Shown piece by piece: positions 28,271-44,364 of a stretch of 64,000 bases of DNA. The DNA comes from Patescibacteria group bacterium (GTDB taxonomy: Bacteria; Patescibacteriota; Minisyncoccia; Phycocordibacterales; PALSA-1337). The position numbers were made by a program, and so were the translations under genes. Position 1 is the stretch's first letter; every line of letters starts with the position of its first letter. The notes under the pieces were generated by a model that saw only the letters and a list, made by a program, of their open reading frames with translations, searched no databases and had not been told where the DNA came from. The stretch covers positions 13,646 to 77,645 of the forward strand of contig JBBTRA010000002.1 of the NCBI GenBank assembly GCA_038065415.1. Direction: 5' to 3'.

Positions 28271-28271
28271 G

Positions 28272-29315
28272 TTATTTGAGGCGTGCAGATATCACTATGC
28301 AGTCGCCGCTCTGGAGAAGATCCACGATACGGTTGCAAAGGGAGATGAGATTGAGAACTAGAAGATATACAGCTCTTTTCAGGACGGATTTGAGTTTTGC
28401 AGGGAAGCCATGGTTTTTCGAAGGTTTTTCCTGGGAAGCTGCTGCATCTTTTTGTTCGTATGCCCACAAAGGATTCTTCATGCCTTGCTGAGGTGTGAAG
28501 CGGAGACGATTGAGCGTATGGATCATCCATGTGGTCGGACTCACTGTCCTCTTTGAGATGACCTCAAAGCCATGGCGCGCGAGCAAGATGCCGATCGCAC
28601 GTGAGGTCAAAATGTGTTGGTGATAGGGGATGTGCCAGTGCGCCCATGCCCGACCGAATATCCTGCGATATATGCTGTCAGCATTGGGTGTACTGAGGAT
28701 GAGTGTGCCATTCTTCACCATGAATTGTTTTGTATGAGCAATGAAGCTCTCAAGATCGATGATGTGTTCGATGACTTGGTTGGCGATGGCATAGTCGAAA
28801 GTGCCTTGAGGAAAAGGACAATCTTCGATCGTACCGATGTGGAGATTGAGCTTAAGGGCGTCTCGGACTATGGATATGTTCTCATCTGTTTCTATGCCGT
28901 ATGCTTCAAATCCACGTCGCTCGAGTTCGATGAGCGATGCGCCGTCACCACAGCCAATGTCGAGGACTCTCTTGCTGTCGCCCTGAAGCGGGAGCATATG
29001 CTGTATCTTGTGGTTGCCATACCACCAATACATGAAGCGCTGATGGAGTGTCTCAGACCTGTTGCCGCGAGCTTCGACAGACTGTAGGTCGATGATGTGA
29101 CGAGGATAGTAGTCGGTGTAGAGTGGTCCGATATCTTCTGGTTTGAGTGGTGGTTCGGTCGTGAGCGTGCCGCAGGAATGACATCGCATGATGGAATACG
29201 ATCCGGGGTGGCCATAGCGGTCATCGTAGATGTGGGGGATGTAGGGGACAGTGGGGCTGCTACAGACAGGGCATGGAGATGAAGCCACTAAATTTTTTTT
29301 GGTGGATGTGGTCAT
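28272..29315 (-). CDS. SAM-dependent methyltransferase with N-terminal Cys4 zinc-ribbon
   Basis: CPVCSSP…CHSCGT then …VLDIGCGDGASLIELERRGFEAYGIE…FDYAIANQVIEHIIDL…. Confidence 0.6.
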   Translation of the reverse strand: MTTSTKKNLVASSPCPVCSSPTVPYIPHIYDDRYGHPGSYSIMRCHSCGTLTTEPPLKPEDIGPLYTDYYPRHIIDLQSVEARGNRSETLHQRFMYWWYGNHKIQHMLPLQGDSKRVLDIGCGDGASLIELERRGFEAYGIETDENISIVRDALKLNLHIGTIEDCPFPQGTFDYAIANQVIEHIIDLESFIAHTKQFMVKNGTLILSTPNADSIYRRIFGRAWAHWHIPYHQHILTSRAIGILLARHGFEVISKRTVSPTTWMIHTLNRLRFTPQQGMKNPLWAYEQKDAAASQEKPSKNHGFPAKLKSVLKRAVYLLVLNLISLCNRIVDLLQSGDCIVISARLK

Positions 29316-30703
29316 GTGGTTCTACGTTTCAAGGCTAGCTCTATCGGACGTATCACGCAATATGCGCTATAAGCCTTCGATTCTGCATTGGTCTTGCCAT
29401 AGAGCTCTCCCATACCTAGATGTCTGAGTAGGCCGTATATTTTGGGGATTGACAGTATTTTTTGCACTCCTTTTTTCCAAGCAAGTTTCTTATGAGCCTT
29501 CGTAAGGGTTGAATTTATCGAGCGAACATAGGCAGGATCGAGTACTTCTCCGAGGATCGCCTCATCGAGTGGAGGCAGCTGACCTTCCTGTATTATCTGG
29601 AGATTGAGAGTGTTATTGCCATCACAGGTGAGACCATCATTTTCGATATCGAGTTTGTGATCTGCAAAGTATTTCTTTTGCCATGATCGGCCAGAGCGTT
29701 CATCTGCTCCGATTGAGAGCATACCGAGTGCAACTTCTGGATCGAGGAAGGGAGACCATGGTTTCCAGGAAAAATGCTCGGGAATCTGATAGAGATAGGT
29801 GAGCAGAATGAGCTTCATACGGGCAAAAAGTATTGGTTGGTAGAATGAGTCATTTATCCTGTTTTTGTGGCGCTCGAAATACGCGGTTCGAAGTGCACGA
29901 TCTGATTTCAGAAGAGATTTGGTATGGTCAGCATGGTCTCCGTGATTACGGGACAAGTTGACGAGGTCACCCTCCGAAGTAATGGGATCAAAATGCACAT
30001 GTCCCGCCCAGAGGTCCCCGATGATGCCACTCAAGAATGCCTGTGCTCCAGGAGCGCTCTTCTTGCGAACTTCTCCGAAGAAATCTAGATGATACATGCC
30101 GTGTGCGTGCACCGCGGGTCCGAACATACCATCCCATTCTTTGAGATATGCTTGAGAATTATGAAGAGGGATGAAGCTCCATTCGAACCCGAGGCGTTTG
30201 GAGGTTTCTGCTGCTCGTATCACTTCGCAGGAACGATGCTGTTCTTCAGATGTGCCATAGGTGAATGCACGCACGCGTGCAGGTTCGCCCAGCATGCTGC
30301 CGAGCAAGCGTGAATCGTAACCACCACTCAAAGGAAGGGTGATAGGTCCCTCGATGCTTTTTTCCCATGTTCTGACTTTGTCTGTGAGTAGGGCAGTCAT
30401 TTCTTCCGGAGTACATATACGCCTATCCGCTGACTCGATCGGGTCAGGAAGCTTTTCTATGAACAATTTTCCTGACTCATCGACGGTGATACGTTCACAT
30501 GCTCCGAGGAATTTTACGTCCTGTATAGGCGTCTGTCCGAAGACCGAGTAGCCAAATTCGAGATAGTTGTTGAAGCCTTCAGGATGGAGCGTCAAATTAG
30601 AATAGTTGATGACGTCGTGTATCGAATGACTCACGGCACCTGTCTTCTCGTTGTAGAAGACAGGTCGCGATGCTAGCCAATCTGTTTCAAAGGTCTTCTT
30701 CAT
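29312..30703 (-). CDS. Asparagine-synthetase-like PP-loop ATP pyrophosphatase (amidotransferase candidate, no obvious N-terminal glutaminase Cys)
   Basis: PP-loop ITLPLSGGYDSRLLGSMLGE (cf. AsnB SGGLDSS); start placed at MKKTFETDW (1 nt after upstream stop); alternative upstream starts would overlap DUF362 gene. Confidence 0.5.
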   Translation of the reverse strand: MKKTFETDWLASRPVFYNEKTGAVSHSIHDVINYSNLTLHPEGFNNYLEFGYSVFGQTPIQDVKFLGACERITVDESGKLFIEKLPDPIESADRRICTPEEMTALLTDKVRTWEKSIEGPITLPLSGGYDSRLLGSMLGEPARVRAFTYGTSEEQHRSCEVIRAAETSKRLGFEWSFIPLHNSQAYLKEWDGMFGPAVHAHGMYHLDFFGEVRKKSAPGAQAFLSGIIGDLWAGHVHFDPITSEGDLVNLSRNHGDHADHTKSLLKSDRALRTAYFERHKNRINDSFYQPILFARMKLILLTYLYQIPEHFSWKPWSPFLDPEVALGMLSIGADERSGRSWQKKYFADHKLDIENDGLTCDGNNTLNLQIIQEGQLPPLDEAILGEVLDPAYVRSINSTLTKAHKKLAWKKGVQKILSIPKIYGLLRHLGMGELYGKTNAESKAYSAYCVIRPIELALKRRTT

Positions 30704-30704
30704 A

Positions 30705-32255
30705 TTAGAGTTCAATATGTCCACGCCAACCTCTTTGCGGAATGAAATTCGCATGATTTTTGCGTATACCATCGACGGAGACATATGAAGGATCGTTGCT
30801 CTTCACGGGTATAGCATCGAGGTTACCCTTCCATCTCTTCAGCCAGGATCTCTTGAGTCCGACACGGAGTGTGGCCATCTTATCTGCATCGAATCCCATG
30901 TAGGTCACGCTGACCGCATCGGCCGCTAGCGGGTTGAGACTGCCTATGAGCGTGCCAACCCTTTTATCCGAAGGGCGGAGCGGACCCTCAGCTTCTCCAG
31001 CGATGATACCGTCGGTGAGCGCCAAGAATATTCTCTGTGGAGTATTTTGCAGGGCTCCTTGTCTGTCGGAATACAAGATGATGCGGATGAGATCGAGGCT
31101 CATGCGCCATGCGGTATCGTTGCCGTACCATGATCCACCGTTGATGTTGCCAATATAGTCTTTTCCACATTTCTTGCGACCGATACGATCTGCGACGCCT
31201 TGTCCGTAGTATTGTATCGGACGTAGGAACCAGCGGTATATGGTATCTGCCAGCTTGTTCTCATGGGAGAGTACATGAAGCTCGCCCCACATGCGGAAGC
31301 GATTGAGTGCATTCTGGAACATGCCAAGATCAGGGTACTCGTCTCCACCGCGTGACGGGTCGCCGATCCTGCAGTGGGGGATATAATTCTTATCTCCCTG
31401 GGTTCCGACCATTGATTTGATATTCAGTGTGGCGCCAACCTTCATGTGTGTCTTGAGCTTGGGTACGGAGATGATGACGTCGGCATTGAGGAATGTCTGA
31501 GCAACCTTGTAGCGATGTGCGCCACCGGTATGGTTGCGTACCGTGTGTTGATTGTCGTAGTCGGCACCATAGAAGAGTGAGCATTGTTTCTCGGTGAGTT
31601 TCGCAAATTCGCTGCTGCCGCGGAGATCGATCTCACGATATCCGGCGGGGTCGCGTTCTTTGATTTCGCGTAGACTCGATGGGCTATAGCCACTCTTTGC
31701 ATCCCACGGAGCGATGAGGGTGCGCAAATCGTAGACTTCGAGATCGAAATTCTTTTCCTTCTTATAAAGTGCAATCATCTCATCCATACCTGTGATCTTC
31801 CTCCAGTTGTCGAAATTCGAGGGTATGATCGGCGCATCAGCGATGACGATTCTACCGGTGCCGCCGAGCGCGATGTACGCATAGTCGACAAGCGCGCGCA
31901 TGACTGATCCGTGGGTGATGCTCGCAAATGAAGATGCTGCGCGATTGAGGTTTTTGTCCCAGACGGCATTGGGCTTGATGACTACAGTATTACCCTTAGC
32001 TATGATGTCCGAGAGAGGGTTCCAATTCTTCGTTCCGTAGTTTTGTGCATCGAAGCCAAGGGTGTGTAGTACTTCGCGTACCCCCGAGTATGCGGGATTC
32101 TTCACCCCTGTACTTATGGTATCCACGCCAAAAGGATATTCTGGATATGCCTCGTCGGGATGGTAGGGTGCTGTCTCGAAATATTCGGTTGCGCCTGTTT
32201 TCCAGATTGCTACGGTTGCCTGCTCGAGAAAATCTTTTTTGGTGAATCGGGTCAT
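30705..32255 (-). CDS. DUF362-family protein (516 aa)
   Basis: …KGNTVVIKPNAVWDKN…GGTGRIVIADAP… matches DUF362 hallmark (xLIKPNLV … IVGD/AP). Confidence 0.5.
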   Translation of the reverse strand: MTRFTKKDFLEQATVAIWKTGATEYFETAPYHPDEAYPEYPFGVDTISTGVKNPAYSGVREVLHTLGFDAQNYGTKNWNPLSDIIAKGNTVVIKPNAVWDKNLNRAASSFASITHGSVMRALVDYAYIALGGTGRIVIADAPIIPSNFDNWRKITGMDEMIALYKKEKNFDLEVYDLRTLIAPWDAKSGYSPSSLREIKERDPAGYREIDLRGSSEFAKLTEKQCSLFYGADYDNQHTVRNHTGGAHRYKVAQTFLNADVIISVPKLKTHMKVGATLNIKSMVGTQGDKNYIPHCRIGDPSRGGDEYPDLGMFQNALNRFRMWGELHVLSHENKLADTIYRWFLRPIQYYGQGVADRIGRKKCGKDYIGNINGGSWYGNDTAWRMSLDLIRIILYSDRQGALQNTPQRIFLALTDGIIAGEAEGPLRPSDKRVGTLIGSLNPLAADAVSVTYMGFDADKMATLRVGLKRSWLKRWKGNLDAIPVKSNDPSYVSVDGIRKNHANFIPQRGWRGHIEL

Positions 32256-32264
32256 ATGTGTGAG

Positions 32265-33221
32265 TTAGTAGAATACACGATTCGGCTTGGTGGTCACGAA
32301 GAATTTCTCCTTACCCTTGTAGTACTCCCAGTCGATGCCTGTACGATCAAATATGATGAAAGGTACATTGCCATACCATGCGGCAAAAGGGCCAAAGGTG
32401 CTGTCTGAGCCGATGATCACGTCGGTTGCGGCCAAAGTGAAAAGGTCTTCCGCAGGAGATCCTGTGGGGAAGAATGCGTTAATACTTTTGAAATGGTCAG
32501 GGTTGAGCTTCTCATCGGAGCATATCACGAAGCAGATGTCTTGGGTTTGCATGCCGGATTGTGTGACATACTCAGTGAGTATTTTTTCAACCTGCTGTGG
32601 TTCGAAGAAGAATTTCTTCTCTTCGACATAACGATAATCACCGAGGCGGAAGTGGACACCGACGACGTGTTTGAAATTAGCACGAGGATAAGCGAGTACA
32701 GAGGAGACGTGGGTTCGCACTTTTTTCTTAGGTTTAATCGCGGTCATGATGTCAGCTCGATATTTTTCCATGCCAATCGGATTGCGGTACATCCATCCAG
32801 TCACATATGCAGCACTGTCGCCTGAGTCCTCAATCATTTTGAGTTTGCGTGCCTGATCCGTATCAGCTACCTCGGTCGGCGGCAAATAGAAAGGACGCCA
32901 AGAATCAACTTCTACAGTATCGTTGATTGTTTCTGGATGTTTGGCGAGAGTGCGTTTGGTATATTTTGGAAATACCCAATGTCTGAGTGGAGACCATTTC
33001 CTGAAGGATATTTTCCGGAGCGGCGAATAGAATAGCAACCAAATCAGCCAGTTGCCTACAGGCATCTCTATTTCATCGCTGTATGTTGAGAAACAATAGT
33101 TCCTGAACTCATAGCCCTTCTCTATGCAGTACGCATAGAGCGCAGCAGAAGGCCAGAGCTGGTTGCCGAGACGGCCGCCATAATGTTGAAGGTAGACTAT
33201 TTTTTTCTTGGAGGGTGTCAT
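32265..33221 (-). CDS. Glycosyltransferase family 11-like (alpha-1,2-fucosyltransferase family)
   Basis: HFRLGDY (cf. GT11 HxRRGDY), …VICSDE…, …IIGSDSTFGPFAAWYGN…. Confidence 0.6.
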   Translation of the reverse strand: MTPSKKKIVYLQHYGGRLGNQLWPSAALYAYCIEKGYEFRNYCFSTYSDEIEMPVGNWLIWLLFYSPLRKISFRKWSPLRHWVFPKYTKRTLAKHPETINDTVEVDSWRPFYLPPTEVADTDQARKLKMIEDSGDSAAYVTGWMYRNPIGMEKYRADIMTAIKPKKKVRTHVSSVLAYPRANFKHVVGVHFRLGDYRYVEEKKFFFEPQQVEKILTEYVTQSGMQTQDICFVICSDEKLNPDHFKSINAFFPTGSPAEDLFTLAATDVIIGSDSTFGPFAAWYGNVPFIIFDRTGIDWEYYKGKEKFFVTTKPNRVFY

Positions 33222-33234
33222 GAGATAGTTTGAT

Positions 33235-34326
33235 CTAAAATGAATTGAGCGCCTTGATCACAGTGTCGACCTCTGCGTCCGTGAGTTCAGGGAATATCGG
33301 CAGAGAAATTATCTCGTCAGCTGCCTTTTCTGTGTTGGGCAGATCGCCTTTCTTACCGCCCAATCCTTCATACGCCGTCTGCAGGTGAACCGGATGTTTG
33401 TAGTGGAAACCATGGCCGATCGAATGCTGTTCCAGATGCTTGATCAAGGTGTCTCTGTCAGCTGTTCGTATCACGAAGAGGTGGTACGTATGCCATGCAC
33501 CTGGCCTTTCTGTGGGTAAAATAAGCTTCGGATTCTTGATGCTGTTTGCGTATTGCGCAGCAATCTCTCGGCGGCGCTCATTGGCTGCTCCGAGTAGGGG
33601 GAGCTTCACGCGTAGGATTGCGGCCTGGATCTCGTCCATACGGCTGTTCCAACCTTCCACCTCGGCAAAATACGTCTTTTTCATACCATACATGCGCATA
33701 GCCCTGCAGGTGTCCGCAACTTCCTGGCTGTTTGTGACGATCATACCACCATCGCCATAGGCTCCTAGATTCTTTGTAGGGTAGAAGCTGAAGCATGCAG
33801 CATTGCCGAAGCTACCGATCGTCTTTCCGTTCAGTTGTGTCCCCGTCGATTGTGCGCAGTCTTCGACGACGATGAGCTTGTGTTTGTGCGCAATTTTCAT
33901 GATTGCATCCATATCGCAGGCATTGCCATAGAGGTGGACGGGTACAATCGCACGAGTCTTTGTTGTGATTGCAGCCTCTATCTTACTTGTGTCGATGGTG
34001 AAGTAGTGGTCTGTGTCTACAAAAATGGGGGTTGCGCCGAGTTCCCGGATCGCGCTCACGGTTGGTACGGCAGTATTCGCTACGGTGATCACTTCATCGC
34101 CAGCCTGTACGCCGAGTGCTCGCAGGGCGATTTTGAGCGCATCAGTGCCAGAATTCACAGCGATGGCGTATTTTGCACCAATGAACGCGGAGAATTCCTG
34201 TTCGAGAGATTCACCCTCTTTTCCGAGAATATACTTGCCCGAGTCGAGGACGCGTTTGATGGCGGCCATTACTTCCGGCTCTATCTTTTTCCAGCTGCGC
34301 TGACTATCGAAGAAGGGGATTACCAT
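33235..34326 (-). CDS. DegT/DnrJ/EryC1/StrS-family PLP-dependent sugar aminotransferase (FdtB-like)
   Basis: …FIGAKYAIAVNSGTDALKIALRALGV…; …CFSFYPTKNLGAYGDGGMIVTN… (Lys in PTKN). Confidence 0.85.
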   Translation of the reverse strand: MVIPFFDSQRSWKKIEPEVMAAIKRVLDSGKYILGKEGESLEQEFSAFIGAKYAIAVNSGTDALKIALRALGVQAGDEVITVANTAVPTVSAIRELGATPIFVDTDHYFTIDTSKIEAAITTKTRAIVPVHLYGNACDMDAIMKIAHKHKLIVVEDCAQSTGTQLNGKTIGSFGNAACFSFYPTKNLGAYGDGGMIVTNSQEVADTCRAMRMYGMKKTYFAEVEGWNSRMDEIQAAILRVKLPLLGAANERRREIAAQYANSIKNPKLILPTERPGAWHTYHLFVIRTADRDTLIKHLEQHSIGHGFHYKHPVHLQTAYEGLGGKKGDLPNTEKAADEIISLPIFPELTDAEVDTVIKALNSF

Positions 34327-34754
34327 GGCTTTTTCTCTGCAACGAATTTCATGAAGTCGTCGTAACTTCGGATGTAGTCTTTCTCGTCATATTCGGTGTC
34401 GGCGATGACGAGCAGGATCGCGTCATCGCTGAAGCTATGCATGACATGCCACACATACGGGAGGAGCAGTACACCTTCATTGGCCGCTGAGAGCGCGACG
34501 GACGTCTTCTCAGAGCCATTGTCGAGATCTACCGAACATGATCCCTGGAGGCAGAAAAGTATCTGGTTCGTCTCGTGATGCGTATGACCGCCGCGGGTGT
34601 CGTCGTTCTTCATGCCCTGCATGGTCAGTATCCTTTTCGGTTGGAAGGGAAGTTTCTCGACGCCTTTATTCTGTACATATTCATACATGGTCAAAACTCC
34701 GTTCTTGGTATCGCGGCTCGGGAACTTCAGCATTTTGTAGAATTCTTTTTTCAT
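34320..34754 (-). CDS. WxcM/FdtA-like cupin (dTDP-4-keto-6-deoxyhexose 3,4-ketoisomerase family)
   Basis: 144 aa; …RGGHTHHETNQILFCLQGSCSVDLDNG… cupin His motif; overlaps aminotransferase gene by 7 nt. Confidence 0.65.
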   Translation of the reverse strand: MKKEFYKMLKFPSRDTKNGVLTMYEYVQNKGVEKLPFQPKRILTMQGMKNDDTRGGHTHHETNQILFCLQGSCSVDLDNGSEKTSVALSAANEGVLLLPYVWHVMHSFSDDAILLVIADTEYDEKDYIRSYDDFMKFVAEKKPW

Positions 34755-34764
34755 TTGGGGCGGC

Positions 34765-35769
34765 TTATTTACCGATAAGCCCTTTGATCTTGCTAGCGAT
34801 CTTTGCCTTCATGCCTTGTTTGATTTTGGCGGTGCCTGTCTCGCAGAGCTTGAGATATTCGGGTATATAGGCATCGAGGGTCATCTTCGGAGTCCAACCG
34901 AGTGAGCGGATCTTATCAGCAGCAATGGCATAGCGTACATCTTGACCGCTCCTGTTGCCCACGAACTCATAGAAGTCCTGTGGCTTGCCCATATGTTTGA
35001 GGATCATTTTGATGACTTCGAGGTTGGTGTGGCTTTCTCCGGATGAGATATTGTATATCTCATCATCCTTTCCTTCCTCCATGACCTTGAAGACTGCTTC
35101 GCAATAATCCTTCACATATATCCATTCACGAATGTACTTGCCGTTGCCATGAACAGGAACCTTGGAGCCTTTGGTAGTGAGCTTGATGGTCTTGGGGATG
35201 AGCTTCTCCGCCTGCTGACCGTAACCATAGTTGTTGCTACCACGGCAGAGACGCGAGCGGACACCGTAGGTGCGCGACCATGCGAACACGAGCTGATCGG
35301 CGGCAGCCTTGGTTGCAGAATAAGGGCTCGATGGCTTGAGCTTGTCTTCTTCTGTGAAGAAGTCGGTATCACGGTCTCCGTAGACCTCGTCGGTCGAGAT
35401 ATGGACGAGGAGTGGGCGATCGACGGCATCCTTGCGGCGAAGAAGTTCGAGCAGGGTATGGACTCCCTTGACGTTGCTCTTGAAGAAAACTTCGTTGGAT
35501 GCGATGGAGTTGTCGACATGAGACTCGGCGGCGAAGTTCACAATGGTTGATATGCCACCTGGAAGCGCTTTGAGCTCGGCAATATCGGCGCGGATGAACT
35601 CGTAGTTTGGATGCTGGTCAAAATTGGTGTCCTTGCGGGCGGCATAGGTCATCTTGTCGATGTTGACCACGCGATAGCCTCGTTCGAGCGCCATCTCGAT
35701 GAAGTTGGAGCCAATGAAGCCTAATCCTCCGGTTACCATGATCTTCTTGGATGTAGTCATATTCATCAT
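34765..35769 (-). CDS. rfbB: dTDP-glucose 4,6-dehydratase
   Basis: KIMVTGGLGFIGSNFIEMALERGYRVVNIDKMTYA…NFAAESHVDNSI…HISTDEVYGD…. Confidence 0.8.
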   Translation of the reverse strand: MMNMTTSKKIMVTGGLGFIGSNFIEMALERGYRVVNIDKMTYAARKDTNFDQHPNYEFIRADIAELKALPGGISTIVNFAAESHVDNSIASNEVFFKSNVKGVHTLLELLRRKDAVDRPLLVHISTDEVYGDRDTDFFTEEDKLKPSSPYSATKAAADQLVFAWSRTYGVRSRLCRGSNNYGYGQQAEKLIPKTIKLTTKGSKVPVHGNGKYIREWIYVKDYCEAVFKVMEEGKDDEIYNISSGESHTNLEVIKMILKHMGKPQDFYEFVGNRSGQDVRYAIAADKIRSLGWTPKMTLDAYIPEYLKLCETGTAKIKQGMKAKIASKIKGLIGK

Positions 35770-35770
35770 A

Positions 35771-36835
35771 TTATACCGCCTTTCGGGGCCTGAATATATT
35801 GATAATAGGCTGCAAAAATGGCCTGATGAGATCCTTGAACGCCCACCACCAGAGAGGGAAGGCGACAGTCTTCAGCTCATCCGAAATACCTGTACGCTGG
35901 ATAGTTCCGGCGATAAAATCGGGCTGTATCATGCGGATGGTTTTCATCGCCTTGTAGAGCTCGTTGCGGTACTGATTATAGATGAGCCTTTTGATGAAGG
36001 TTGGTTTACCATAGTTGTGAGCCGTCTTGGCTATAGAGACCCTGAACGGTGATGGCAGAAAATATATTTTGAAGCTTGAGAAATGGAAAAAGATGAGTGG
36101 AACATCATCGATCATTACTACTCCATTTTTACGGTATATTTTGTCCTTGAAATTGCCAATGCACCATGGGGCGAGATTGGATCCCTTGTGGGTGAGAATG
36201 TAAACGCCTTTGAATTTTTCTTCAAAAAAGTCGAGATACTTCTGATCGCCAAAACGGTCAGGTTCTACTCGCGCGTAACACCATTCGATACATTTGTCGC
36301 TCCACCAGGTTAGACATGCTCGACCATCGTCATCGTTTCTGAAAATCACCATGCCGACATTGTATTTCCCCACATCCTTCTCTTTGTGGCGACGATTCTC
36401 TGGGTGATTGTGTGGAATGATAAGAGTCGAATTGTTCCCGAAGAGGTCAAATATAGGCTGTACCGATGAATAGAAGTAAAGGTCGGCGTCGACGTAGATG
36501 ACGAGTTGAGACGCATCACCTGGATCTGTATAGTTTTTCATTACATGCTGAGTGAATCCGCTTCCGAGCGTCCAACAGTATTCTTCGAGAGTTCTGGTTT
36601 TTTTCGTGGCGGCAATCGCTGGCTCTTTTTGTTCGAATTCAACACGACTTACGAGAGTGACGCGTGGTAGCGCGAGTTTCGTGAGTAATGCATGAGATTC
36701 TTCGTCAACGCAGAGGATATAGAGTTGGAAAGGCTGGGGTGCATATCTTATGAGCGACGCATGAAGTGCGAGTCCACGATTGGTGAATCCTTTATCGAAC
36801 AATGTTACGTAGAGATGCTTCATGATTTTTTGCAT
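35771..36835 (-). CDS. Putative GT-A-fold glycosyltransferase (DxD: …IYVDADLYF…)
   Basis: MQKIMKHLYVTLFDKGF…; 1-nt gap to rfbB start; no confident family. Confidence 0.4.
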   Translation of the reverse strand: MQKIMKHLYVTLFDKGFTNRGLALHASLIRYAPQPFQLYILCVDEESHALLTKLALPRVTLVSRVEFEQKEPAIAATKKTRTLEEYCWTLGSGFTQHVMKNYTDPGDASQLVIYVDADLYFYSSVQPIFDLFGNNSTLIIPHNHPENRRHKEKDVGKYNVGMVIFRNDDDGRACLTWWSDKCIEWCYARVEPDRFGDQKYLDFFEEKFKGVYILTHKGSNLAPWCIGNFKDKIYRKNGVVMIDDVPLIFFHFSSFKIYFLPSPFRVSIAKTAHNYGKPTFIKRLIYNQYRNELYKAMKTIRMIQPDFIAGTIQRTGISDELKTVAFPLWWWAFKDLIRPFLQPIINIFRPRKAV

Positions 36836-37617
36836 AGATAGCTGGTTATTAATACGGGCTCACCAAGACCTGGAACATTCATCGAACTGATGGTTTCACT
36901 CGCTGCAACGTCGAGACCGTATTTCTTGAAGAGGTCGAATAGTTCAGACTCATTGAAGAATATCTCGAACATTGGCAGGCCATAGCCGATCTTTTCTGCA
37001 TAGGTTGTCGATGTCGATCTCACGACTGGCGTGCGGTGAAATAATGCATACTGCGTAGCGACGCGAGCGGTCTCGGCAATAGCCTTCTCGTAATCGATAA
37101 TATGGAGTATACAGCAGCCTGATATGGCGATATCGAAAGATGTATCAGGATATCCGAGTTTTGTAGCGTCTTCAGTCCGAAATGATATACCCGGATGCAG
37201 TTCTTTTGCTTTTGCTACAAAAGCCTCTGAATAATCACATCCTTCATATGAGACCTCGAGTCCTGCGTCTTTGAATACATCTGCGTAATATCCTGTCGAG
37301 CAGCCAATTTCGAGGATGGTCGGCTTGGTCAAATGTGTTGCACGGATAAGTTTAACTGCAGCTTCATAGACAGGTGCGCTTTTAGGGGATCGAGCGTTAA
37401 CTTTGAGCTGTTGGGCAGGAATAGATGAATCCTTCCAGATATCCTCATATTTTCTTTTAAGTTCTGCGAGATTTGGATTTTTCAGAATACTATAGTGGCC
37501 CGAAGCTTTTTCTGTGCGAGGACGCAGAGTATACAAACACTTTTTAGCGAATGACCAAAGTGGCGTTGGTATGACGGACTTCAGATTGCGGAGCTTGTTT
37601 TTTAGAGTATTCTTCAT
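36820..37617 (-). CDS. Class I SAM-dependent methyltransferase
   Basis: …ILEIGCSTGYYADVFKDAGLEVSYEGCDYSE…FDIAISGCCILHI…. Confidence 0.65.
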   Translation of the reverse strand: MKNTLKNKLRNLKSVIPTPLWSFAKKCLYTLRPRTEKASGHYSILKNPNLAELKRKYEDIWKDSSIPAQQLKVNARSPKSAPVYEAAVKLIRATHLTKPTILEIGCSTGYYADVFKDAGLEVSYEGCDYSEAFVAKAKELHPGISFRTEDATKLGYPDTSFDIAISGCCILHIIDYEKAIAETARVATQYALFHRTPVVRSTSTTYAEKIGYGLPMFEIFFNESELFDLFKKYGLDVAASETISSMNVPGLGEPVLITSYLCKKS

Positions 37618-37623
37618 GTCAGT

Positions 37624-38340
37624 TTATTTCTTTGCCACGATAATATTATCCATGTAGAGATCATTATTCTTCGGCAGTATCCGGTACAGGATGGATCCGA
37701 TTATTGTTACCGGCGCTATGAGTATGGCATAGCTGAGTAGCTTCAGGTAGTAGTTCTTGAAAGGGAGCGACTTGTGGATATAGCAGGCGATAAGCTGGAA
37801 TATCACGCGAATATCGTTGAGGCTTTTTCGGTGCTCGATAATCGTGAAGCCATGTTCTTTGAGGAGATGTGCAACGCCAAATGAAGAATACCGCGCATAG
37901 TCGTAAGGTTGGGAGTGCTCGTCCCAGACGAACGGCACGCTCATGAGTATGCTGCCGCCCTTCTTGAGGGTGCGGTTGATTTCTGTAAGGAATTCGTCGG
38001 GATTGAAGACGTGTTCAAGCACTTGAGTGAATATGATGCCGTCAAAGGTTTCGTCTGCAAAAGGGAACTTCTTAGTGTCGTAGAACACATCTATCTGCTT
38101 GATCTTCCTATTCTCCGGAGAGTCGTAGTCCATGCCGATATATTCGGTTGCGTGCGTGAAAAGCTTCTCATAGGGCTTGGTGCCGCAGCCGACATCCAGA
38201 ACTTTGCCGGTGATGTGGCTGCTCAACTCCTTCATATTCTGGTGCAAGGCGCGGCGCACGAAATAGAATGGGTTGAAGACCATGCCGAGGAGCTTCGGGT
38301 TGTATTTCTGCGACTGAATTTTTTGGAAAAATTTCGACAT
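37624..38340 (-). CDS. Class I SAM-dependent methyltransferase (paralog of 39259..40035)
   Basis: Start at Met36 (revcomp ATG 38338-38340): MSKFFQKIQ…FNPFYFVRRAL…VLDVGCGTKPYEKLF…. Confidence 0.6.
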   Translation of the reverse strand: MSKFFQKIQSQKYNPKLLGMVFNPFYFVRRALHQNMKELSSHITGKVLDVGCGTKPYEKLFTHATEYIGMDYDSPENRKIKQIDVFYDTKKFPFADETFDGIIFTQVLEHVFNPDEFLTEINRTLKKGGSILMSVPFVWDEHSQPYDYARYSSFGVAHLLKEHGFTIIEHRKSLNDIRVIFQLIACYIHKSLPFKNYYLKLLSYAILIAPVTIIGSILYRILPKNNDLYMDNIIVAKK

Positions 38341-38362
38341 GCGAGTGTAGGTTTGAGCAGGC

Positions 38363-39262
38363 TTATGAGCGGATCTTATTGATAATTCGACGGATGATGC
38401 TCGGTTTTTTTGGTCGGAGATAGTCGGCGAACAGTGCGCGTGCACGAGAGTCTTCTTGGAGCGGGATCCGTTCGGCCCGGATCTTCCGGTCAGATAGCGT
38501 ACTGCGGTATTTCAGTGTCTTCTTGGAGTGTGTACCGGTCGTGTCATGACCGATGTTATCGACGAGCGATATGCCCGGATAGAGCGTGAGTTTTGCTGCT
38601 AGAAATGAGGAGGCGTGCCAGCGTACTGCCCAGGAATTGTTTGTGCCGGCAATCTGACCTTTCAACATATCAGTGAAAGGGTACGATCCATCGAGATCGA
38701 ATGCTTGTGTCAGATTTTGTTCCTCGAGTTGTATCAAGAGGGCCTTACCGTCTGGATTGAATTCGGCCCAGGCTCTCTTCCAAGTAGCCCAGCCCCAGCA
38801 GTCTGCACCTCGCAGAAAGAATGTCTCGGGAAGTTTTTCCTTTACAGCGTAGCTGTACCCGTGGATGCTCGCTACTTTGTTATCGTGTTTGTAGAGGTTG
38901 AGTCCGTCGTTCATATAGGTGAGGAAATATGGTGAAGTGACGAGATCGTCCTCAACGATAATTATCTGCTCGTATGTGTTCACGATCTCGGTGACACCAG
39001 TGATGATTGATTTGGCCAGGCCGTAATTTTCCGCACGCTCTACTATATGCACAGATTTGAAACCTGCAACTGATTTGAGGTATGTGCGAACAGCAGTGAC
39101 TCCTTCCAGTGCCGCTTCATTCTTGGCTCCATCGGCGAAGATGAAAAGATCGCTTTCGGCAGCAAGCATATTCTGCTGCAGAGCTTCAATCGTTTTTTGT
39201 GTATGCTCAGGACGATTGTAGACAAAGAGGGCTATGGGGGCGTAATTTTTCATGGAGTTCAT
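38363..39262 (-). CDS. Glycosyltransferase family 2-like
   Basis: …APIALFVYNRPEHTQKTIEAL…IIVEDDL… (DxD); start MNSMKNY forms ATGA overlap with upstream stop. Confidence 0.6.
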   Translation of the reverse strand: MNSMKNYAPIALFVYNRPEHTQKTIEALQQNMLAAESDLFIFADGAKNEAALEGVTAVRTYLKSVAGFKSVHIVERAENYGLAKSIITGVTEIVNTYEQIIIVEDDLVTSPYFLTYMNDGLNLYKHDNKVASIHGYSYAVKEKLPETFFLRGADCWGWATWKRAWAEFNPDGKALLIQLEEQNLTQAFDLDGSYPFTDMLKGQIAGTNNSWAVRWHASSFLAAKLTLYPGISLVDNIGHDTTGTHSKKTLKYRSTLSDRKIRAERIPLQEDSRARALFADYLRPKKPSIIRRIINKIRS

Positions 39263-40035
39263 ATTTTTCGGGCCGTCACAATATAGTCGAGAGTGATACC
39301 TTTCTTGCTGAAGATACGATCGAACACGAGGCCGATGATCTGTATTGGCGCACATACAATAGCTATGATTATGCGTGAACCAATGAATTTCAACTTATAT
39401 CTGAGGCCTGATAATCCACCACGATCGAGCAGGGAGTTTGTCCAGTCTATAAGGAAGTCAGACATAATCTGTGCACATGTTCCGAAAATACCTGTGGTGT
39501 GCTCGATCTTCTTGATCTCGAAGCCGCATTCCTTGAGTAGCTTCTGGTGTCCGAAGGAGGTGAATCTCTGAAAATCGTAGGGTTTTTCATGTTCGGGCCA
39601 TACAAATGGCATCGATAAAAATAGTGTTCCTCCGGGTTTGAGTACACGATGTATATCCTTGGTCAATTCGGGCAGGTACTCTACATGCTCGAATACCTCA
39701 GAGGCTATAACAATATCGAACTTCTCTGCAGGGAAAGGTATATTTTTACCATCGAAGAAAAGATCAGCATCCATAGCGCCACGATCATGGCCGCTTTCGG
39801 AAACTTCGATGCCGGTATACTCGTTCCCTTTGAAAAGTTGCTCGTAAGGCTTGATGCCGCAACCGACATCAAGGATGGAATTTCCGGGCTTGAGCGTTTT
39901 GGAGAACTCAAAGAATTTTCGGTATAGATGCCTTCGTGTGATAAAAAATGGGTTCAAGAATATTCCGAACCAGCGTGGGTTAAACGCGTGGGCATCCTCA
40001 ATCTGGCGTATTTTGTTTTCTATGAATTTCTTCAT
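39259..40035 (-). CDS. Class I SAM-dependent methyltransferase (paralog of 37624..38340)
   Basis: MKKFIENKIRQIED…FLNPFFITRRHLYRKF…ILDVGCGIKPYEQLF…; ATGA overlap with upstream gene. Confidence 0.6.
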   Translation of the reverse strand: MKKFIENKIRQIEDAHAFNPRWFGIFLNPFFITRRHLYRKFFEFSKTLKPGNSILDVGCGIKPYEQLFKGNEYTGIEVSESGHDRGAMDADLFFDGKNIPFPAEKFDIVIASEVFEHVEYLPELTKDIHRVLKPGGTLFLSMPFVWPEHEKPYDFQRFTSFGHQKLLKECGFEIKKIEHTTGIFGTCAQIMSDFLIDWTNSLLDRGGLSGLRYKLKFIGSRIIIAIVCAPIQIIGLVFDRIFSKKGITLDYIVTARKI

Positions 40036-41141
40036 GATAGATTTTCTTGCAGCATGCTGCATAGTTCTCTCATCCGGTGCTCGTAGGTATGCTCGGTGAG
40101 TGTTCTGTGCTGCCCAGCCTTCGCTATCTGAGCTCGTTCGGACTCGTTCGTAAGATAGTACTGTATTTTTTGTACGAGATCCTCTGGTGAGTCATAGGTG
40201 ACCACTTCTTTTCCTGGCACGAATATATCCCCAATATTCTTTTTGTTATCGACCATAAGGAGGCATCCGACGCCCGTAGCTTCATACATACGCATATTGT
40301 TGGCGTAGTCTCCAGCCACTTTCTTCACATGTCCCGTTATGGTTATTTTGCTATTTCTCAATATGGAGAACATCTCTGAGCCCCATGCTTCGCCGTGATA
40401 ATTTTTCCGTATAGCTGACTCGGCGGGAAGGTTTTCAATCCCATAGCCCCATGCATCAAGCTTTATCGCGTGCGCGACTGCTTCCAAGGTGCGGTTGCGG
40501 TCTGCGTGAATCTGATCATAGCCTCCGATGTGGGTGATGTCATATGTCAACGCTGCTGGCTGTAGATTTTCCAATATAGTCTGATCGAATGCGAGCTTCA
40601 GATAGTAGGATTTTGTACCGTGATTGTGTAGGTACTCCACCTGATTTGGAAGAGAAGAAACTACAAAATCGTAGGGCTTGAAAGCGTCCATGGTTGGCAG
40701 TTTGCTGGCGATCTGGAGTACATAGAGTTTCGTCAGCTTCTTTATACGCATGTTGAATGCGGTATCGAGGTCGCGGGTAATCGAATATATAACATCGGGC
40801 TTATATGCGCGTACTTGGGCCTCGAGTATTTCTTCTTGCCAGCCCCATTTCTTGTGAATCAGGTAGTGCAGCTTTGCTGAAAGCGTAGGAGTTTTTTGCG
40901 GTGAATTTAAGGAGTGTTCCTTTATCCATGCTTTTTGTAGTCTTTCATTGTTCACGATGATCAATTCGACCTCATGTCCCAATAAGGAGAGTGCTCGTAC
41001 ACACGGGAGAGCTGGACCTGAATTTTCTTGTTCGAGAGCCTTTTTCTGCTCGACATACGAAAGCGACGACAGATTCGGATATTTCCGATAGGAATTCTCT
41101 ATATGTTCCTGATAGTCTGTGTCTATGACGAGTATCTTCAT
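40032..41141 (-). CDS. Putative glycosyltransferase (CgeB-like/GT1-like)
   Basis: MKILVIDTDYQEHIENSYRKYPNL…; C-terminal …YEATGVGCLLMVDNKKNIGDIFVPGKEVVTYDSPEDLVQKI…. Confidence 0.45.
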   Translation of the reverse strand: MKILVIDTDYQEHIENSYRKYPNLSSLSYVEQKKALEQENSGPALPCVRALSLLGHEVELIIVNNERLQKAWIKEHSLNSPQKTPTLSAKLHYLIHKKWGWQEEILEAQVRAYKPDVIYSITRDLDTAFNMRIKKLTKLYVLQIASKLPTMDAFKPYDFVVSSLPNQVEYLHNHGTKSYYLKLAFDQTILENLQPAALTYDITHIGGYDQIHADRNRTLEAVAHAIKLDAWGYGIENLPAESAIRKNYHGEAWGSEMFSILRNSKITITGHVKKVAGDYANNMRMYEATGVGCLLMVDNKKNIGDIFVPGKEVVTYDSPEDLVQKIQYYLTNESERAQIAKAGQHRTLTEHTYEHRMRELCSMLQENLS

Positions 41142-41145
41142 GGAT

Positions 41146-41844
41146 TTATTCCTTAGTGAATACAGCTACGTATCCATTTGTTTTACTACGGGGCCATCCG
41201 GTCATTGTCCAGAACCACAGCGAGATACGATTGATGATCGATATACCTGGTAGCGGCCATGAGAATTCGAGTCCTTCGCGACGATTCCAATTGCTGATGA
41301 GATTGACTTGGTGTGCACCCTGCTTTTGTTGCTGCTCGAGGGTGAAATAGTGCATGATCGCCTTGGGTGGGTATGGCTTGATATGGTCGAGTTCATTGTA
41401 GAAACCAGGGTACATGAGAGGGCTTCGTATGATAACGATACCCCCCGGCTTTACCACACGGAAAAGTTCCTCAAGGAGAAGGGTTACTTCGGGATAACTG
41501 AAATGCTCGATGACATGTGCGCAGTGGACGATATCGAACGATGAGTCTGCGTAGGGCATTTTTGTTGCAGATGCTGCTGCAGTCTTGAACCCTTTTTCCG
41601 TGAGTTTTTGTGCGACGGTTGTGTTGACTTCGAGGCACTCGATGTCGAGCTTCTCTTTGGGGTGGATGGTGCGAAGCTTGAGAGGGAAGCGTCCGAGACC
41701 TGCTCCTACCTCGAGATATTTTGTGGGTACGCCTGTAGGAGTGTTTGAAGAGGGTGCCTCTATGGTGTGCACGATCGCATCGAGTGCAGGAGCATCTTCG
41801 CGCTCGACCGACTTCATGTTGTATCTATCTCGAATAGTCATATG
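41146..41844 (-). CDS. Class I SAM-dependent methyltransferase
   Basis: …YLEVGAGLGRFPLKL…FDIVHCAHVIEHFSYPE…VKPGGIVIIRSP…. Confidence 0.6.
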   Translation of the reverse strand, partial: HMTIRDRYNMKSVEREDAPALDAIVHTIEAPSSNTPTGVPTKYLEVGAGLGRFPLKLRTIHPKEKLDIECLEVNTTVAQKLTEKGFKTAAASATKMPYADSSFDIVHCAHVIEHFSYPEVTLLLEELFRVVKPGGIVIIRSPLMYPGFYNELDHIKPYPPKAIMHYFTLEQQQKQGAHQVNLISNWNRREGLEFSWPLPGISIINRISLWFWTMTGWPRSKTNGYVAVFTKE

Positions 41845-41852
41845 ATTGATAG

Positions 41853-43127
41853 TTATTTCCGCTCTACGACACTCCACTTTTGGTCAATGAAGATGGGGCT
41901 ATGTGCGGTCTGCACGCCTGTGCCGTAATAGTCACCTTCATCAACACGGAACACGGCTACATTCTTGACATGGTCTTCACGATTTTCACCTGCATGGAGA
42001 TCCACTGAGACGCCATAGGTCCCTACATTGAGTGGGAACTTCTGGTCGATGCTACAGCGGATGACTCCTTTTTGTGGGAGGGTGGCAAATTGTTCTTTGG
42101 TCAGATTGGTCGAAGCGAGGATGAGTGGTGTACCAGACTCTGCAGTGATGGAGAAAGTTGCGTTCACGTCATTCACAGGAGACCCGTCAGTCGTATATTC
42201 GAAGCAGAGTGTGTATGAGCCTCCTGTCTTGAGTGTGTTGACCTTTTTGCCATTTTCCTCAATGAAGAATGAATCTATCTTCACGCGCCCCGCACCTTTG
42301 CGGTCATGGCGCATGCGGACATCGACACCTTTTTCGCGCACGAGCGGATCCTTGAGATACATGCTGATAATTTCATCAGTGTCTCCTGATGCTTTGACCA
42401 CACCCTTCTCGATGAGGATGCAACGGTTGCAGAGTTTCCTGACAGCTTCCATGTTGTGACTGACGAATAAGATCGTGCGGCCGTCCTCACGGGTGATCTG
42501 ATCCATTTTGCCGAGACATTTCTTCTGGAAATCGGCATCGCCCACAGCGAGCACCTCATCGATGATGAGGATGTCTGGCTCCATGTGTGCTGCCACCGAG
42601 AAGGCGAGGCGTACGTACATACCGCTGGAATAGTATTTTACCGGCGTATCGAGGAATTTTTCGATCTCTGCAAATCTGACGATCGCATCGAACTTGGAGG
42701 CCATCTCTTTTCGGGTCATGCCGAGGATGGCGCCATTCAAGAATATGTTCTCGCGGCCAGTGAGTTCCGGATGGAAGCCGGTTCCGACTTCGAGCAGGCT
42801 GCCGACCTTGCCGTGAAGCGTGATCTCGCCTTCGGTGGGCGAGGTGATCTGGGAGAGGATCTTGAGTAGGGTAGATTTTCCGGCCCCATTGTGACCGATG
42901 ATGCCGACCACTTCACCAGGATTCACTGTGAAGTTGATATCTTTGAGTGCCCAGAAGACCTCTTTCTTGGTGAGCCCTGTCATATCCTTGAATTTCGAGC
43001 CGAGGTAACGCAAGGGATGCTTGAATGCATCGGTGATCACGTCGCGCAGAGCGATATATCCACCACGTTCATGTGTGATCTTGTAGCTCTTGGCGATATT
43101 CTTTACTTCGATGATGGGGGAGGACAT
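41853..43127 (-). CDS. wzt: ABC transporter ATP-binding protein for glycan export (Wzt/TagH-like) with ~170-aa C-terminal extension
   Basis: Walker A GHNGAGKSTLLKIL, signature YSSGMYVRLAFSVA, Walker B ILIIDEVLAVGD, H-loop FVSHNM; residues ~255-424 form an extra β-rich domain. Confidence 0.8.
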   Translation of the reverse strand: MSSPIIEVKNIAKSYKITHERGGYIALRDVITDAFKHPLRYLGSKFKDMTGLTKKEVFWALKDINFTVNPGEVVGIIGHNGAGKSTLLKILSQITSPTEGEITLHGKVGSLLEVGTGFHPELTGRENIFLNGAILGMTRKEMASKFDAIVRFAEIEKFLDTPVKYYSSGMYVRLAFSVAAHMEPDILIIDEVLAVGDADFQKKCLGKMDQITREDGRTILFVSHNMEAVRKLCNRCILIEKGVVKASGDTDEIISMYLKDPLVREKGVDVRMRHDRKGAGRVKIDSFFIEENGKKVNTLKTGGSYTLCFEYTTDGSPVNDVNATFSITAESGTPLILASTNLTKEQFATLPQKGVIRCSIDQKFPLNVGTYGVSVDLHAGENREDHVKNVAVFRVDEGDYYGTGVQTAHSPIFIDQKWSVVERK

Positions 43128-43141
43128 ATATATATAGAATG

Positions 43142-43984
43142 TTAGACGATATCAGCGAAGTACCTCTCGACCTTTTTGAAGACATAGATTCCCACAATGA
43201 GCAGTATGAAGCAGGCGATGAGCGAGATGCCAAGGAGGAGCCAGTTGATCGGCGCGGTACCGAGGAGTGCCGCGCGGGCATTCTGGATGACTCCCATCAT
43301 CGGGTTGATGGCCAAGAATTTCGAATATGCTCCGGCGATCGAGGCGGGGTAGATGACCGGAGTTACGAAGAGGAGGAGCTGAATGAAGAAAGGCAGTGCG
43401 TAACGGACGTCACGGTATTTTACATTGATCGAGGCAAGGATCAGTCCACCGCCAACCGCTGCCATGAAAGTGATGAGAAGGAGAAGCGGTATGAGAAGCA
43501 GGCCGCTGATGTGCGGCGTATATCCATAGTAGAACATCAGGCCGACGAGGATGGCCGCAGCAATGGCAAAATCTACGAGCTTGGTGATGACCGAGGAGAT
43601 GGGGAGTATGAGGCGCGGGAAGTAGACCTTGGTGATGATTGCCTGGTTGCTGATGAGTACATTGCTGGTGTCGCCGAGCGCGCTCGAGAAAAATTGCCAG
43701 AAAATAAGACCGACATAGACGAAGATCGGGTAGGGGACGCCGTCAGAAGGCATCTTGGCTAGTCCTCCGAAGAAGATGGAGAAGACCACCATGGTGATGA
43801 AAGGTTGGAATATTGCCCAGCCTGCACCGATGACAGTCTGCTTGTAGCGGACCTTGAGGTCACGCCAGGTGAAGAAGTAAAGGAGCTCCTTGTAGTTCCA
43901 GAGTTCGCGGAGATCCGAGAAATGGAATATCTTCTTTGGTTTGATAGTCGTGATGATGCTCATGAGAGAAATGTATTCTAGCAC
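43142..43984 (-). CDS. wzm: ABC-2 type transporter permease (Wzm-like)
   Basis: 280 aa, six TM helices; adjacent upstream of Wzt; first gene of minus-strand run. Confidence 0.75.
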   Translation of the reverse strand: MLEYISLMSIITTIKPKKIFHFSDLRELWNYKELLYFFTWRDLKVRYKQTVIGAGWAIFQPFITMVVFSIFFGGLAKMPSDGVPYPIFVYVGLIFWQFFSSALGDTSNVLISNQAIITKVYFPRLILPISSVITKLVDFAIAAAILVGLMFYYGYTPHISGLLLIPLLLLITFMAAVGGGLILASINVKYRDVRYALPFFIQLLLFVTPVIYPASIAGAYSKFLAINPMMGVIQNARAALLGTAPINWLLLGISLIACFILLIVGIYVFKKVERYFADIV

Positions 43985-44012
43985 TTTTTACCCAGTAGGT
44001 GATCCTGCTGGA

Positions 44013-44261
44013 TCACCACTTATTTATCTTGTCCACGACCTTCTTCTTGAGACCGAGGTATGACTTGACTGCTTCTTGTTCGAGTTCAGGGGAGAGGACG
44101 CGGAGTATTTCTTTGCCGAGGATACGATACTGCCCGCCGACTTTGTTGGCGCGGAGGAGTCCTTTCTTGAGCATGCGCTTGATCGTGCTCTCGCTTACAC
44201 GGAGTATGTCTTGTGTTTCGCTTGTCGTATAGACGCCATGAGGTTTTATCTCTTCTGTCAT
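44013..44261 (-). CDS. Small helix-turn-helix DNA-binding protein (excisionase/MerR-type HTH)
   Basis: 82 aa; …YTTSETQDILRVSESTIKRMLKKGLLRANKVGGQYRI…. Confidence 0.6.
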   Translation of the reverse strand: MTEEIKPHGVYTTSETQDILRVSESTIKRMLKKGLLRANKVGGQYRILGKEILRVLSPELEQEAVKSYLGLKKKVVDKINKW

Positions 44262-44364
44262 AGAGCTCTATTCTAGCAAAGTGTCAAAAGGTGTCAAGTT
44301 GGTTCACTAGTAAAAAGCCTTTGATTGGGGCCCTATTTAAGCTTTAATTAGCGCTCTATAAATA

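Follow-up and report, generated by a model that had tools for sequence, protein, structure and literature searches.

A methyltransferase gene that co-varies with the genes of a 3-amino-3,6-dideoxyhexose pathway in a glycan operon of a Patescibacteria group bacterium

In a 64-kb stretch of DNA (the window) from a metagenome-assembled genome (MAG) of a Patescibacteria group bacterium, a member of the candidate phyla radiation (CPR), a long Wzm/Wzt glycan operon on the minus strand contains genes for a dehydratase, a cupin and an aminotransferase, arranged head to tail. Their predicted pathway leads to a nucleoside diphosphate (NDP)-linked 3-amino-3,6-dideoxyhexose. This core pathway is already known, and what is new is a co-varying methyltransferase of an uncharacterised family, here called MT265 (36820..37617, minus strand), in place of an N-acyltransferase. 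MT265 probably acts in the amino-sugar branch, and from its genomic association we tentatively suggest that this new methyltransferase family may N-methylate the NDP-3-amino-3,6-dideoxyhexose. The operon as a whole is best explained as one that builds a heavily methylated cell-surface glycan and exports it via Wzm/Wzt.

An earlier note on this DNA had placed the open reading frames (ORFs) of the RfbB-like dehydratase, the FdtA-type cupin, the DegT aminotransferase and MT265, and all four were found exactly where it put them, all on the minus strand. The first enzyme is an NDP-glucose 4,6-dehydratase of the RfbB/RmlB type (34765..35769, 334 aa; PF16363/PF01370). Its best NCBIfam model is TIGR01181, dTDP-glucose 4,6-dehydratase (1.2e-103), with 346.6 bits against a cut-off of 365.1. 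It narrowly misses this equivalog cut-off and is divergent, yet TIGR01181 is by far the best model. The GxxGxxG NAD site of the short-chain dehydrogenases/reductases (GGLGFIGS) and the catalytic Thr-Asp-Glu (STDEVYG) and Tyr-x3-Lys (YSATK) motifs are all present in the translation. The cupin (34320..34754, 144 aa) matches PF05523 at 3e-36 with 124.5 bits against a gathering score of 23, and its best solved relative is FdtA of Aneurinibacillus thermoaerophilus (2PA7, 4.6e-27), followed by QdtA, WlaRA and the C-terminal domain of FdtD. The catalytic His-x-His is kept, with GHTHH aligned to FHAHK of 2PA7 (His49/His51 of FdtA). Because of the PF05523 and FdtA matches and the conserved histidines, we assign this protein as an FdtA/QdtA-type NDP-4-keto-6-deoxyhexose 3,4-ketoisomerase, as had been claimed, and not as RmlC. 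The cupin scores 97.7 bits with FdtA and 79 bits with QdtA, a gap that is not diagnostic for the galacto (FdtA) versus the gluco (QdtA) product.

The third enzyme (33235..34326, 363 aa) is a pyridoxal phosphate-dependent aminotransferase of the DegT family that matches PF01041 at 4.3e-120 (401.7 bits) and carries the cofactor-binding Lys motif FYPTKNLG. Among solved structures in the PDB it ranks 7b0d, DesV, QdtB, 7N63, WlaRG and WbpE above the C-4 enzymes ArnB, PerA and WecE. The top match, 7b0d, is deposited as a glutamine--scyllo-inositol transaminase, and the best named relatives are C-3 sugar aminotransferases, so that an FdtB/QdtB/DesV-like C-3 enzyme is predicted. A dehydratase, a 3,4-ketoisomerase and a C-3 aminotransferase together lead to the predicted product, NDP-3-amino-3,6-dideoxyhexose, which would be of either 3-amino-3,6-dideoxygalactose (Fuc3N) or 3-amino-3,6-dideoxyglucose (Qui3N) type. 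The three-enzyme pathway is itself ordinary, and the proposal that these contiguous genes form a route to such a sugar is borne out by protein families, catalytic motifs and gene order. Intergenic gaps in the operon range from -16 to +13 nt. Since its genes overlap or lie 1-13 nt apart, their adjacency is operonic and not a matter of chance.

From these assignments the following pathway can be drawn. An NDP-glucose, most likely dTDP-glucose from an RmlA encoded outside the window, would be dehydrated by the RfbB-like enzyme; the FdtA-type cupin would isomerise the product to a 3-keto sugar, and the FdtB/QdtB-like enzyme would aminate C-3 to give NDP-3-amino-3,6-dideoxyhexose in gluco or galacto form. 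Protein families, motifs and the order of the genes show these three steps. The amine would then not be acylated but would receive one or two methyl groups from MT265, which depends on S-adenosylmethionine (SAM), a step suggested by gene co-variation and the missing acyltransferase. Finally, a GT8-like glycosyltransferase, a GT11-like one or both would add the sugar to the glycan, as suggested by gene position only. The substrate of MT265 could be either the sugar nucleotide or the already transferred residue.

The placement of MT265 in this branch comes first from a comparison of CPR loci that have the GT11-like gene, a set in which samples are small and not phylogenetically independent. An MT265 ortholog was found in 4/4 of these loci with FdtA and DegT and in 0/7 of those without. 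The cassette MT265-GT8like-(RfbB)-FdtA-DegT-GT11like recurs in three other CPR genomes, one from Azambacteria (L007/L009), one a MAG labelled Saccharibacteria (L010) and one from Parcubacteria (L011), the last without RfbB within the locus. The CPR orthologs of MT265 are 51-54% identical over their full length, and no left-handed beta-helix (LbH), GNAT or formyl acyltransferase was found in the three syntenic clusters. By contrast, no MT265 ortholog is present in any of the seven loci that lack FdtA and DegT (L005, L006, L008, L092, L093, L094 and L095). Two of these are the most informative comparison: L008 and L092 are otherwise syntenic with the window but are without FdtA, DegT and MT265 together. 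Both retain Wzm-Wzt, a GT8like::RfbB fusion, the GT11-like gene and an MT347-like gene, and L008 also retains the membrane protein. MT265 can be dispensed with precisely in the loci that lack the amine, and no acyl cap is encoded; for these two reasons N-methylation is likelier than O-methylation, given that MT265 acts in the amino-sugar branch.

The fused gene of L008 (7983..10004) and L092 (7991..10000) joins a GT8-like protein and an RfbB-like 4,6-dehydratase in about 670 aa. A putative glycosyltransferase is thereby joined in one polypeptide to the enzyme of the first committed sugar-nucleotide step.

The earlier note had also pointed to other nearby methyltransferases as possible partners of the pathway. 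We rejected MT347, MT243, MT267 and MT273 in this role, since their orthologs either occur in amine-less syntenic loci or do not follow the pathway. MT347 orthologs are present in L008 and L092, both without FdtA/DegT, and so are not specific to the amino-sugar branch; orthologs of the three methyltransferases encoded at 37624..41877 do not follow FdtA/DegT.

We also examined the neighbourhoods of more distant MT265 homologs. The MT265 family, which occurs in CPR lineages and in metagenomes from soil, sediment and freshwater, comprises more than 160 clusters (38-71% identity), and a metagenome scan with a 37-sequence MT265 alignment gave 80 loci. Where 10 kb of flank was available on each side (n=11, including two duplicates), a DegT-like gene lay within 10 kb in 11/11 loci, an FdtA-like gene in 6/11 and a GT8-like gene in 9/11. 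For loci with flanks of 6 kb or more on each side (n=18) the corresponding counts were 13, 9 and 10. In 11/83 loci the MT265 homolog follows DegT on the same strand at a distance of 33-200 nt, and in 3 it stands directly upstream of FdtA. Four soil metagenome operons (L029, L031, L042 and L069) have the order RfbB-RmlA-FdtA-DegT-(Wzx-like membrane protein)-MT-GT4-(Wzy-like), with a Bac_transf gene upstream of RfbB in L031. In operons of this type RmlA was confirmed by Pfam and the unassigned ORFs are proteins with 6-8 transmembrane segments. No acyltransferase was found in these four operons, and the methyltransferase therefore fills the slot that FdtC has in characterised clusters. The suggestion that a methyltransferase caps the amine can thus be tied to one gene, 36820..37617, by its co-variation with FdtA and the aminotransferase and by this operon slot elsewhere. 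In a further glycan-type locus, L083, the MT265 homolog stands beside DegT and an NDP-hexose 2,3-dehydratase (14254..15924, PF03559, 3.4e-160), an enzyme typical of the antibiotic pathways to 2,6-dideoxy and 3-amino-2,3,6-trideoxy sugars. L083 represents a different route to a 3-amino sugar, and the common denominator across MT265 contexts is a sugar amine.

Several observations weigh against N-methylation by MT265. Of the 18 loci flanked by 6 kb or more on each side, 5 have no DegT, and the tightest link of MT265 is to the GT8-like gene, which is its immediate neighbour in 41/83 loci and lies within reach in 52/83; such linkage would also fit a transferase and an O-methyltransferase that act as a pair on the glycan. 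The DegT beside the MT265 homolog of L040 has its own WlbB-like acetyltransferase (3MQG, 2.4e-95), and an LbH gene lies about 5 kb from the homolog in L074. The Pfam count of 105 neighbour ORFs took in only families with at least three members, so that single acyltransferases could be missed. Searches with the predicted fold of MT265 were flat, the sugar O-methyltransferases AtmM and RebM ranking as high as N-methyltransferases, and a PDB sequence search and a DesVI+TylM1 hidden Markov model (HMM) gave no similarity to any characterised sugar N-methyltransferase. It is also possible that an acetyltransferase or RmlA is encoded elsewhere in the same MAG, of which 64 kb of about 1 Mb is visible.

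The linkage to the GT8-like gene, the fold matches to AtmM and RebM, the L040 acetyltransferase and the small part of the genome in view speak for an alternative in which MT265 is an O-methyltransferase, acting on O-2 or O-4 of the amino sugar or on a residue added by the GT8-like protein, while the amine is acetylated by an enzyme encoded elsewhere. One form of this would be a chain-terminating methyl cap read by the carbohydrate-binding domain of Wzt; the window Wzt does have a Wzt_C domain, and a domain of this type recognises the methylated terminus in systems of the E. coli O8/O9a kind. We nevertheless consider the O-methyltransferase alternative, in all its forms, doubtful. MT265 is lost with FdtA and DegT in L008 and L092 although the GT8-like module, Wzt_C and other methyltransferases are retained there, and in the L029-type operons the methyltransferase is placed within the sugar-nucleotide genes with no GT8-like gene. 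Moreover, four CPR clusters and the L029-type operons have no linked acyltransferase, whereas characterised FdtA/FdtB clusters normally have one adjacent.

Some metagenome loci show related modules in fused form: giant ORFs of 1,200-2,300 aa in L078 (6926..10651 and 12744..19574) and L081 (8033..11839 and 15380..18814) combine GT1_2, MT265-like and GT8-like modules. The GT1_2-MT265-GT8like block is kept as separate genes in L009, L011, L059, L068 and L091.

The absence of an acyltransferase is the other support for methylation of the amine. Pfam scans of the window took in every ORF of at least 150 aa not nested in a larger assigned gene, and among these no Hexapep, GNAT or formyltransferase and no RmlA-type NTP_transferase was found. 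Searches of the 64-kb window by tblastn with a real WlbB-like hexapeptide acetyltransferase (from L040) and a real RmlA (from L031) gave no match even at E <= 1. These results agree with the earlier note, which had seen neither FdtC nor RmlA in the window, and they extend the first point to other standard N-acyltransferases. The absence of the acyltransferase is read from the Pfam scans and the tblastn probe, within 64 kb of a genome of about 1 Mb. A hexapeptide-repeat heuristic was poorly calibrated: it gave a LacA sequence a score of only 5, though it did flag the true LbH gene of L040, confirmed against 3MQG. As a comparison, RmlA adjoins FdtA in the homologous operons of L029, L031, L047 and L069. 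Two candidates for a hidden enzyme were rejected. The 318-aa ORF after the aminotransferase is GT11-like, with the motif HFRLGDY and homologs that carry PF01531, and is not an acyltransferase; the 354-aa ORF before RfbB is GT8-like with a DxD motif, had no match to the RmlA probe and is not a nucleotidyltransferase.

The same absence of a linked acyltransferase in the window could mean that the amine is left free, so that the glycan is cationic, or that it is altered only once the sugar has been polymerised, with all methyltransferases of the cluster O-methylating the backbone or a cap. Seven methyltransferases and at least 12 glycosyltransferases do suggest extensive O-methylation. We regard a free amine as improbable, given the loss of MT265 together with FdtA and DegT in L008 and L092 and given that free 3-amino sugars are rare in mature glycans. 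There is a precedent in Geobacillus sp. PSS1, which has FdtA/FdtB without FdtC and whose sugar was suggested by the authors not to be acetylated (PMC5109656).

A further alternative is ATP-dependent acylation of the amine. The same operon includes, two genes downstream of the aminotransferase gene, a pair that encodes a DUF362 protein (LarA-N clan, about 510 aa, 30705..32255; PF04015 at 3.7e-22) and an AsnB-superfamily, ATP-dependent amide synthetase-like protein (29312..30784; PF00733 weak) that has no N-terminal glutaminase Cys. These might activate a carboxylic or amino acid as its adenylate and attach it to N-3. The AlphaFold2 (AF2) model of the AsnB-like protein (pLDDT 92.5) has as its best folds carbapenam synthetase, beta-lactam synthetase and AsnB, all ATP-dependent amide formers, and so resembles enzymes that work through acyl-adenylates. 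Fuc3N that is N-acylated with taurinyl-Ala-Gly, made with ligase-type genes, is documented in Clostridium difficile type B flagellin (PMC5207245). The distribution of the pair, however, argues against this role and makes it very improbable. The pair is kept in glycan clusters of Cyanobacteria, Acidobacteria and CPR, among them Leptolyngbya, Pyrinomonadaceae and another CPR locus, without FdtA/DegT within 10 kb (L002 8471..11383, L004 8433..11377 and L005 15705..18673), and the three other CPR clusters with FdtA and DegT (L007/L009, L010 and L011) lack it. A commoner role of AsnB-like enzymes is the amidation of uronic acid, which also speaks against acylation of N-3. Because the pair spreads independently of FdtA/DegT it is a separate modification module; we demoted it as a dedicated N-acylation system, and it may be an ATP-dependent, amide-forming glycan modification. 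The AsnB-like protein has more than 800 homologs of about 460-480 aa, all annotated as 'hypothetical', and DUF362 is replaced by a PGA_cap (CapA-like) protein in L003 and L006.

Methylation of the amine by MT265 had been proposed by analogy with the N,N-dimethyltransferases TylM1 and DesVI, and here the analogy does not extend to sequence or to specific fold. MT265 is a class I SAM-dependent methyltransferase of 265 aa (PF08241/PF13649), whose invariant residues include H172, Y176, R185, R195, K209, E218, N222 and E223. An HMM built from DesVI (3BXO) and TylM1 (3PFG) was run against all 609 six-frame ORFs of at least 50 aa in the window. MT265 was the best of these, yet with only 6.3 bits (E 0.19) and over the SAM motif (motif I) only; as a comparison, members of the TylM1/DesVI family share at least 230 bits with one another. 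By this measure none of the seven methyltransferases of the window belongs to that family, and the TylM1/DesVI-like signatures looked for in the nearby methyltransferases were not seen. TylM1 and DesVI are absent from the PDB matches of MT265 at E <= 0.01, a list that is mixed. The AF2 model of MT265 (pLDDT 92.6) has a generic class I fold; DesVI ranks 37-43 among its structural neighbours, and no specific likeness beyond the class I core was found. The chemistry proposed for MT265 would be the same as that of TylM1/DesVI (also of CalS10 and KedS8), which act on dTDP-3-amino sugars in macrolide and enediyne pathways, and both are class I Rossmann enzymes. Unlike them, MT265 has no sequence relationship beyond motif I and would serve a surface glycan rather than a secondary metabolite.

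In bacterial surface glycans, N-acylation of amino sugars is almost universal, and N-methylated 3-amino-3,6-dideoxyhexoses are known essentially from macrolide and related antibiotic pathways. Our literature search found no paper that describes such CPR glycan clusters or glycans with N-methyl Fuc3N/Qui3N. We tentatively suggest that MT265 may found a widespread and so far unrecognised family of NDP-amino-sugar N-methyltransferases, evolutionarily independent of TylM1/DesVI, that replace N-acylation and give surface glycans with methylamino- or dimethylamino-6-deoxyhexoses. If this is true, the family would be a second, convergent enzyme solution for N-methylation of 3-amino sugars, mycaminose- or desosamine-like cationic sugars would occur outside secondary metabolism, and positively charged, methylated glycans would be predicted on CPR surfaces; it would also supply new biocatalysts for glyco-diversification. 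CPR envelopes are almost uncharacterised, and the episymbiotic lifestyle of these bacteria depends on surface contacts. Only four small, soluble proteins would be needed to test the prediction for MT265 directly.

The same three-enzyme core is found in two characterised S-layer glycan systems, the dTDP-D-Fuc3NAc pathway of A. thermoaerophilus L420-91T (RmlA, RmlB, FdtA, FdtB, FdtC) and the dTDP-D-Qui3NAc pathway of Thermoanaerobacterium thermosaccharolyticum (QdtA, QdtB, QdtC). The proteins of these systems are the best solved relatives of those in the window, and the setting is similar too, a glycan cluster of the ABC-transporter type in a cell that has, or is expected to have, no outer membrane. 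Unlike these systems, the cluster of the window has no FdtC/QdtC hexapeptide acetyltransferase and no RmlA, and a methyltransferase co-varies instead. More broadly, the closest analogues of the window cluster are clusters for S-layer and wall glycans in Gram-positive bacteria that depend on an ABC transporter. The window also resembles the systems for methyl-capped glycans that depend on an ABC transporter, those of E. coli O8/O9a (WbdD and the carbohydrate-binding domain of Wzt) and of Geobacillus stearothermophilus (a 2-O-methyl-rhamnose cap, WsaE), in its Wzm/Wzt with Wzt_C, its numerous methyltransferases scattered among glycosyltransferases and its adjacent Wzy_C/TPR ligase-like protein. 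Unlike in these systems, no WbdD-like kinase/coiled-coil protein was recognised in the window, and this likeness bears on the O-methyltransferase alternative rather than on the amino-sugar branch. The flagellin glycan of C. difficile type B also contains Fuc3N, made by an FdtB homolog, with a non-acetyl N-substituent, and methylated rhamnose (PMC5207245). There, acyltransferase and ligase genes add the peptide and no FdtA is found; the window does have FdtA, and its linked candidate is a methyltransferase.

The two putative glycosyltransferases that flank the sugar-nucleotide genes are candidates for transfer of the 6-deoxyhexose. The GT8-like ORF (35771..36835, 354 aa), which overlaps the MT265 stop by 16 nt, has a weak PF01501 match (E 0.018) and a DxD-type motif, YVDADLYF. 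The GT11-like ORF (32265..33221, 318 aa), of the fucosyltransferase superfamily, matches PF01531 at E 0.0015 with 18.3 bits against a gathering score of 23.9. It has the HxRxGDY motif, and precomputed annotation assigns PF01531 to many of its 67 homologs. Its gene always comes after sugar-nucleotide genes, following DegT in L007/L009 and L010 and directly following RfbB in L008 and L092, which makes the GT11-like protein the most plausible transferase. It is probable that it transfers the 6-deoxyhexose made by the adjacent genes, with the GT8-like protein as the alternative.

By ORF and Pfam assignments, the operon is about 19 kb long and runs on the minus strand from about 44.3 kb down to 25.5 kb, with all genes co-directional and tightly packed. 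The first in transcription order, before Wzm, is a small HTH_17 ORF of about 82 aa (44013..44261), excisionase/MerR-like. Wzm (43142..43984, PF01061) and Wzt (41853..43127, PF00005 with PF14524 Wzt_C as its C-terminal carbohydrate-binding domain) follow. Pfam then assigns a class I methyltransferase (41146..41877), a GT1_2 glycosyltransferase (40032..41141), a second class I methyltransferase (39259..40062), a GT2-like glycosyltransferase (38363..39355) and a third class I methyltransferase (37624..38445), after which come MT265, the GT8-like gene, the three core enzymes, the GT11-like gene and the DUF362/AsnB-like pair. The end of the operon encodes MT347 (28272..29315), a methyltransferase with Zn-ribbon and Methyltransf_23 domains (PF13489 at 1.6e-27), a multi-pass membrane protein of 634 aa (26366..28270) with a weak LIC_10190-family match, and, last, a 275-aa protein that matches no named family (25535..26362). 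The L007 ortholog of the membrane protein carries PF02366 (PMT, GT-C fold), and the protein is likely an extracytoplasmic glycosyltransferase that acts after export.

The only strong promoter-like site (11/12), at 44297..44270, lies upstream of the HTH_17 ORF, in a promoter scan that overall was not above chance. An HTH_17 ORF also precedes wzm or the cluster start in the CPR loci L008 (1297..1545), L092 (412..657) and L093 (3872..4117), and it may be a dedicated regulator of the glycan cluster.

Within about 29 kb, two convergent operons, 15750..25538 on the plus strand and 25535..44261 on the minus strand, together encode at least 12 glycosyltransferase-like proteins and seven class I methyltransferases, a very large outlay for a CPR genome of about 1 Mb. 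Divergent from the glycan operon is a gene (44957..47170, plus strand) for a 737-aa Wzy_C (O-antigen-ligase-like) protein with C-terminal TPR repeats. Homologous Wzy_C-TPR genes flank L005 and L006. By analogy with WsaB, the protein may transfer the finished glycan to a protein or wall acceptor. Its host is expected to be without an outer membrane, and 'O-antigen' is the wrong term for the glycan of a source labelled 'Patescibacteria group bacterium'.

Two ORFs of about 290-297 aa (13970..14845 and 20178..21071, both plus strand) have the N-terminal and central domains of UDP-glucose/GDP-mannose dehydrogenases and no C-terminal domain; they may be truncated paralogues or members of a short subfamily. 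Further upstream, a 669-aa HerA/TraG/TrwB-like P-loop ATPase (5333..7342, plus strand) is encoded between a DUF4015 glycoside-hydrolase-like gene and a GT4 gene, and the L004 glycan locus likewise contains a DUF87 ATPase.

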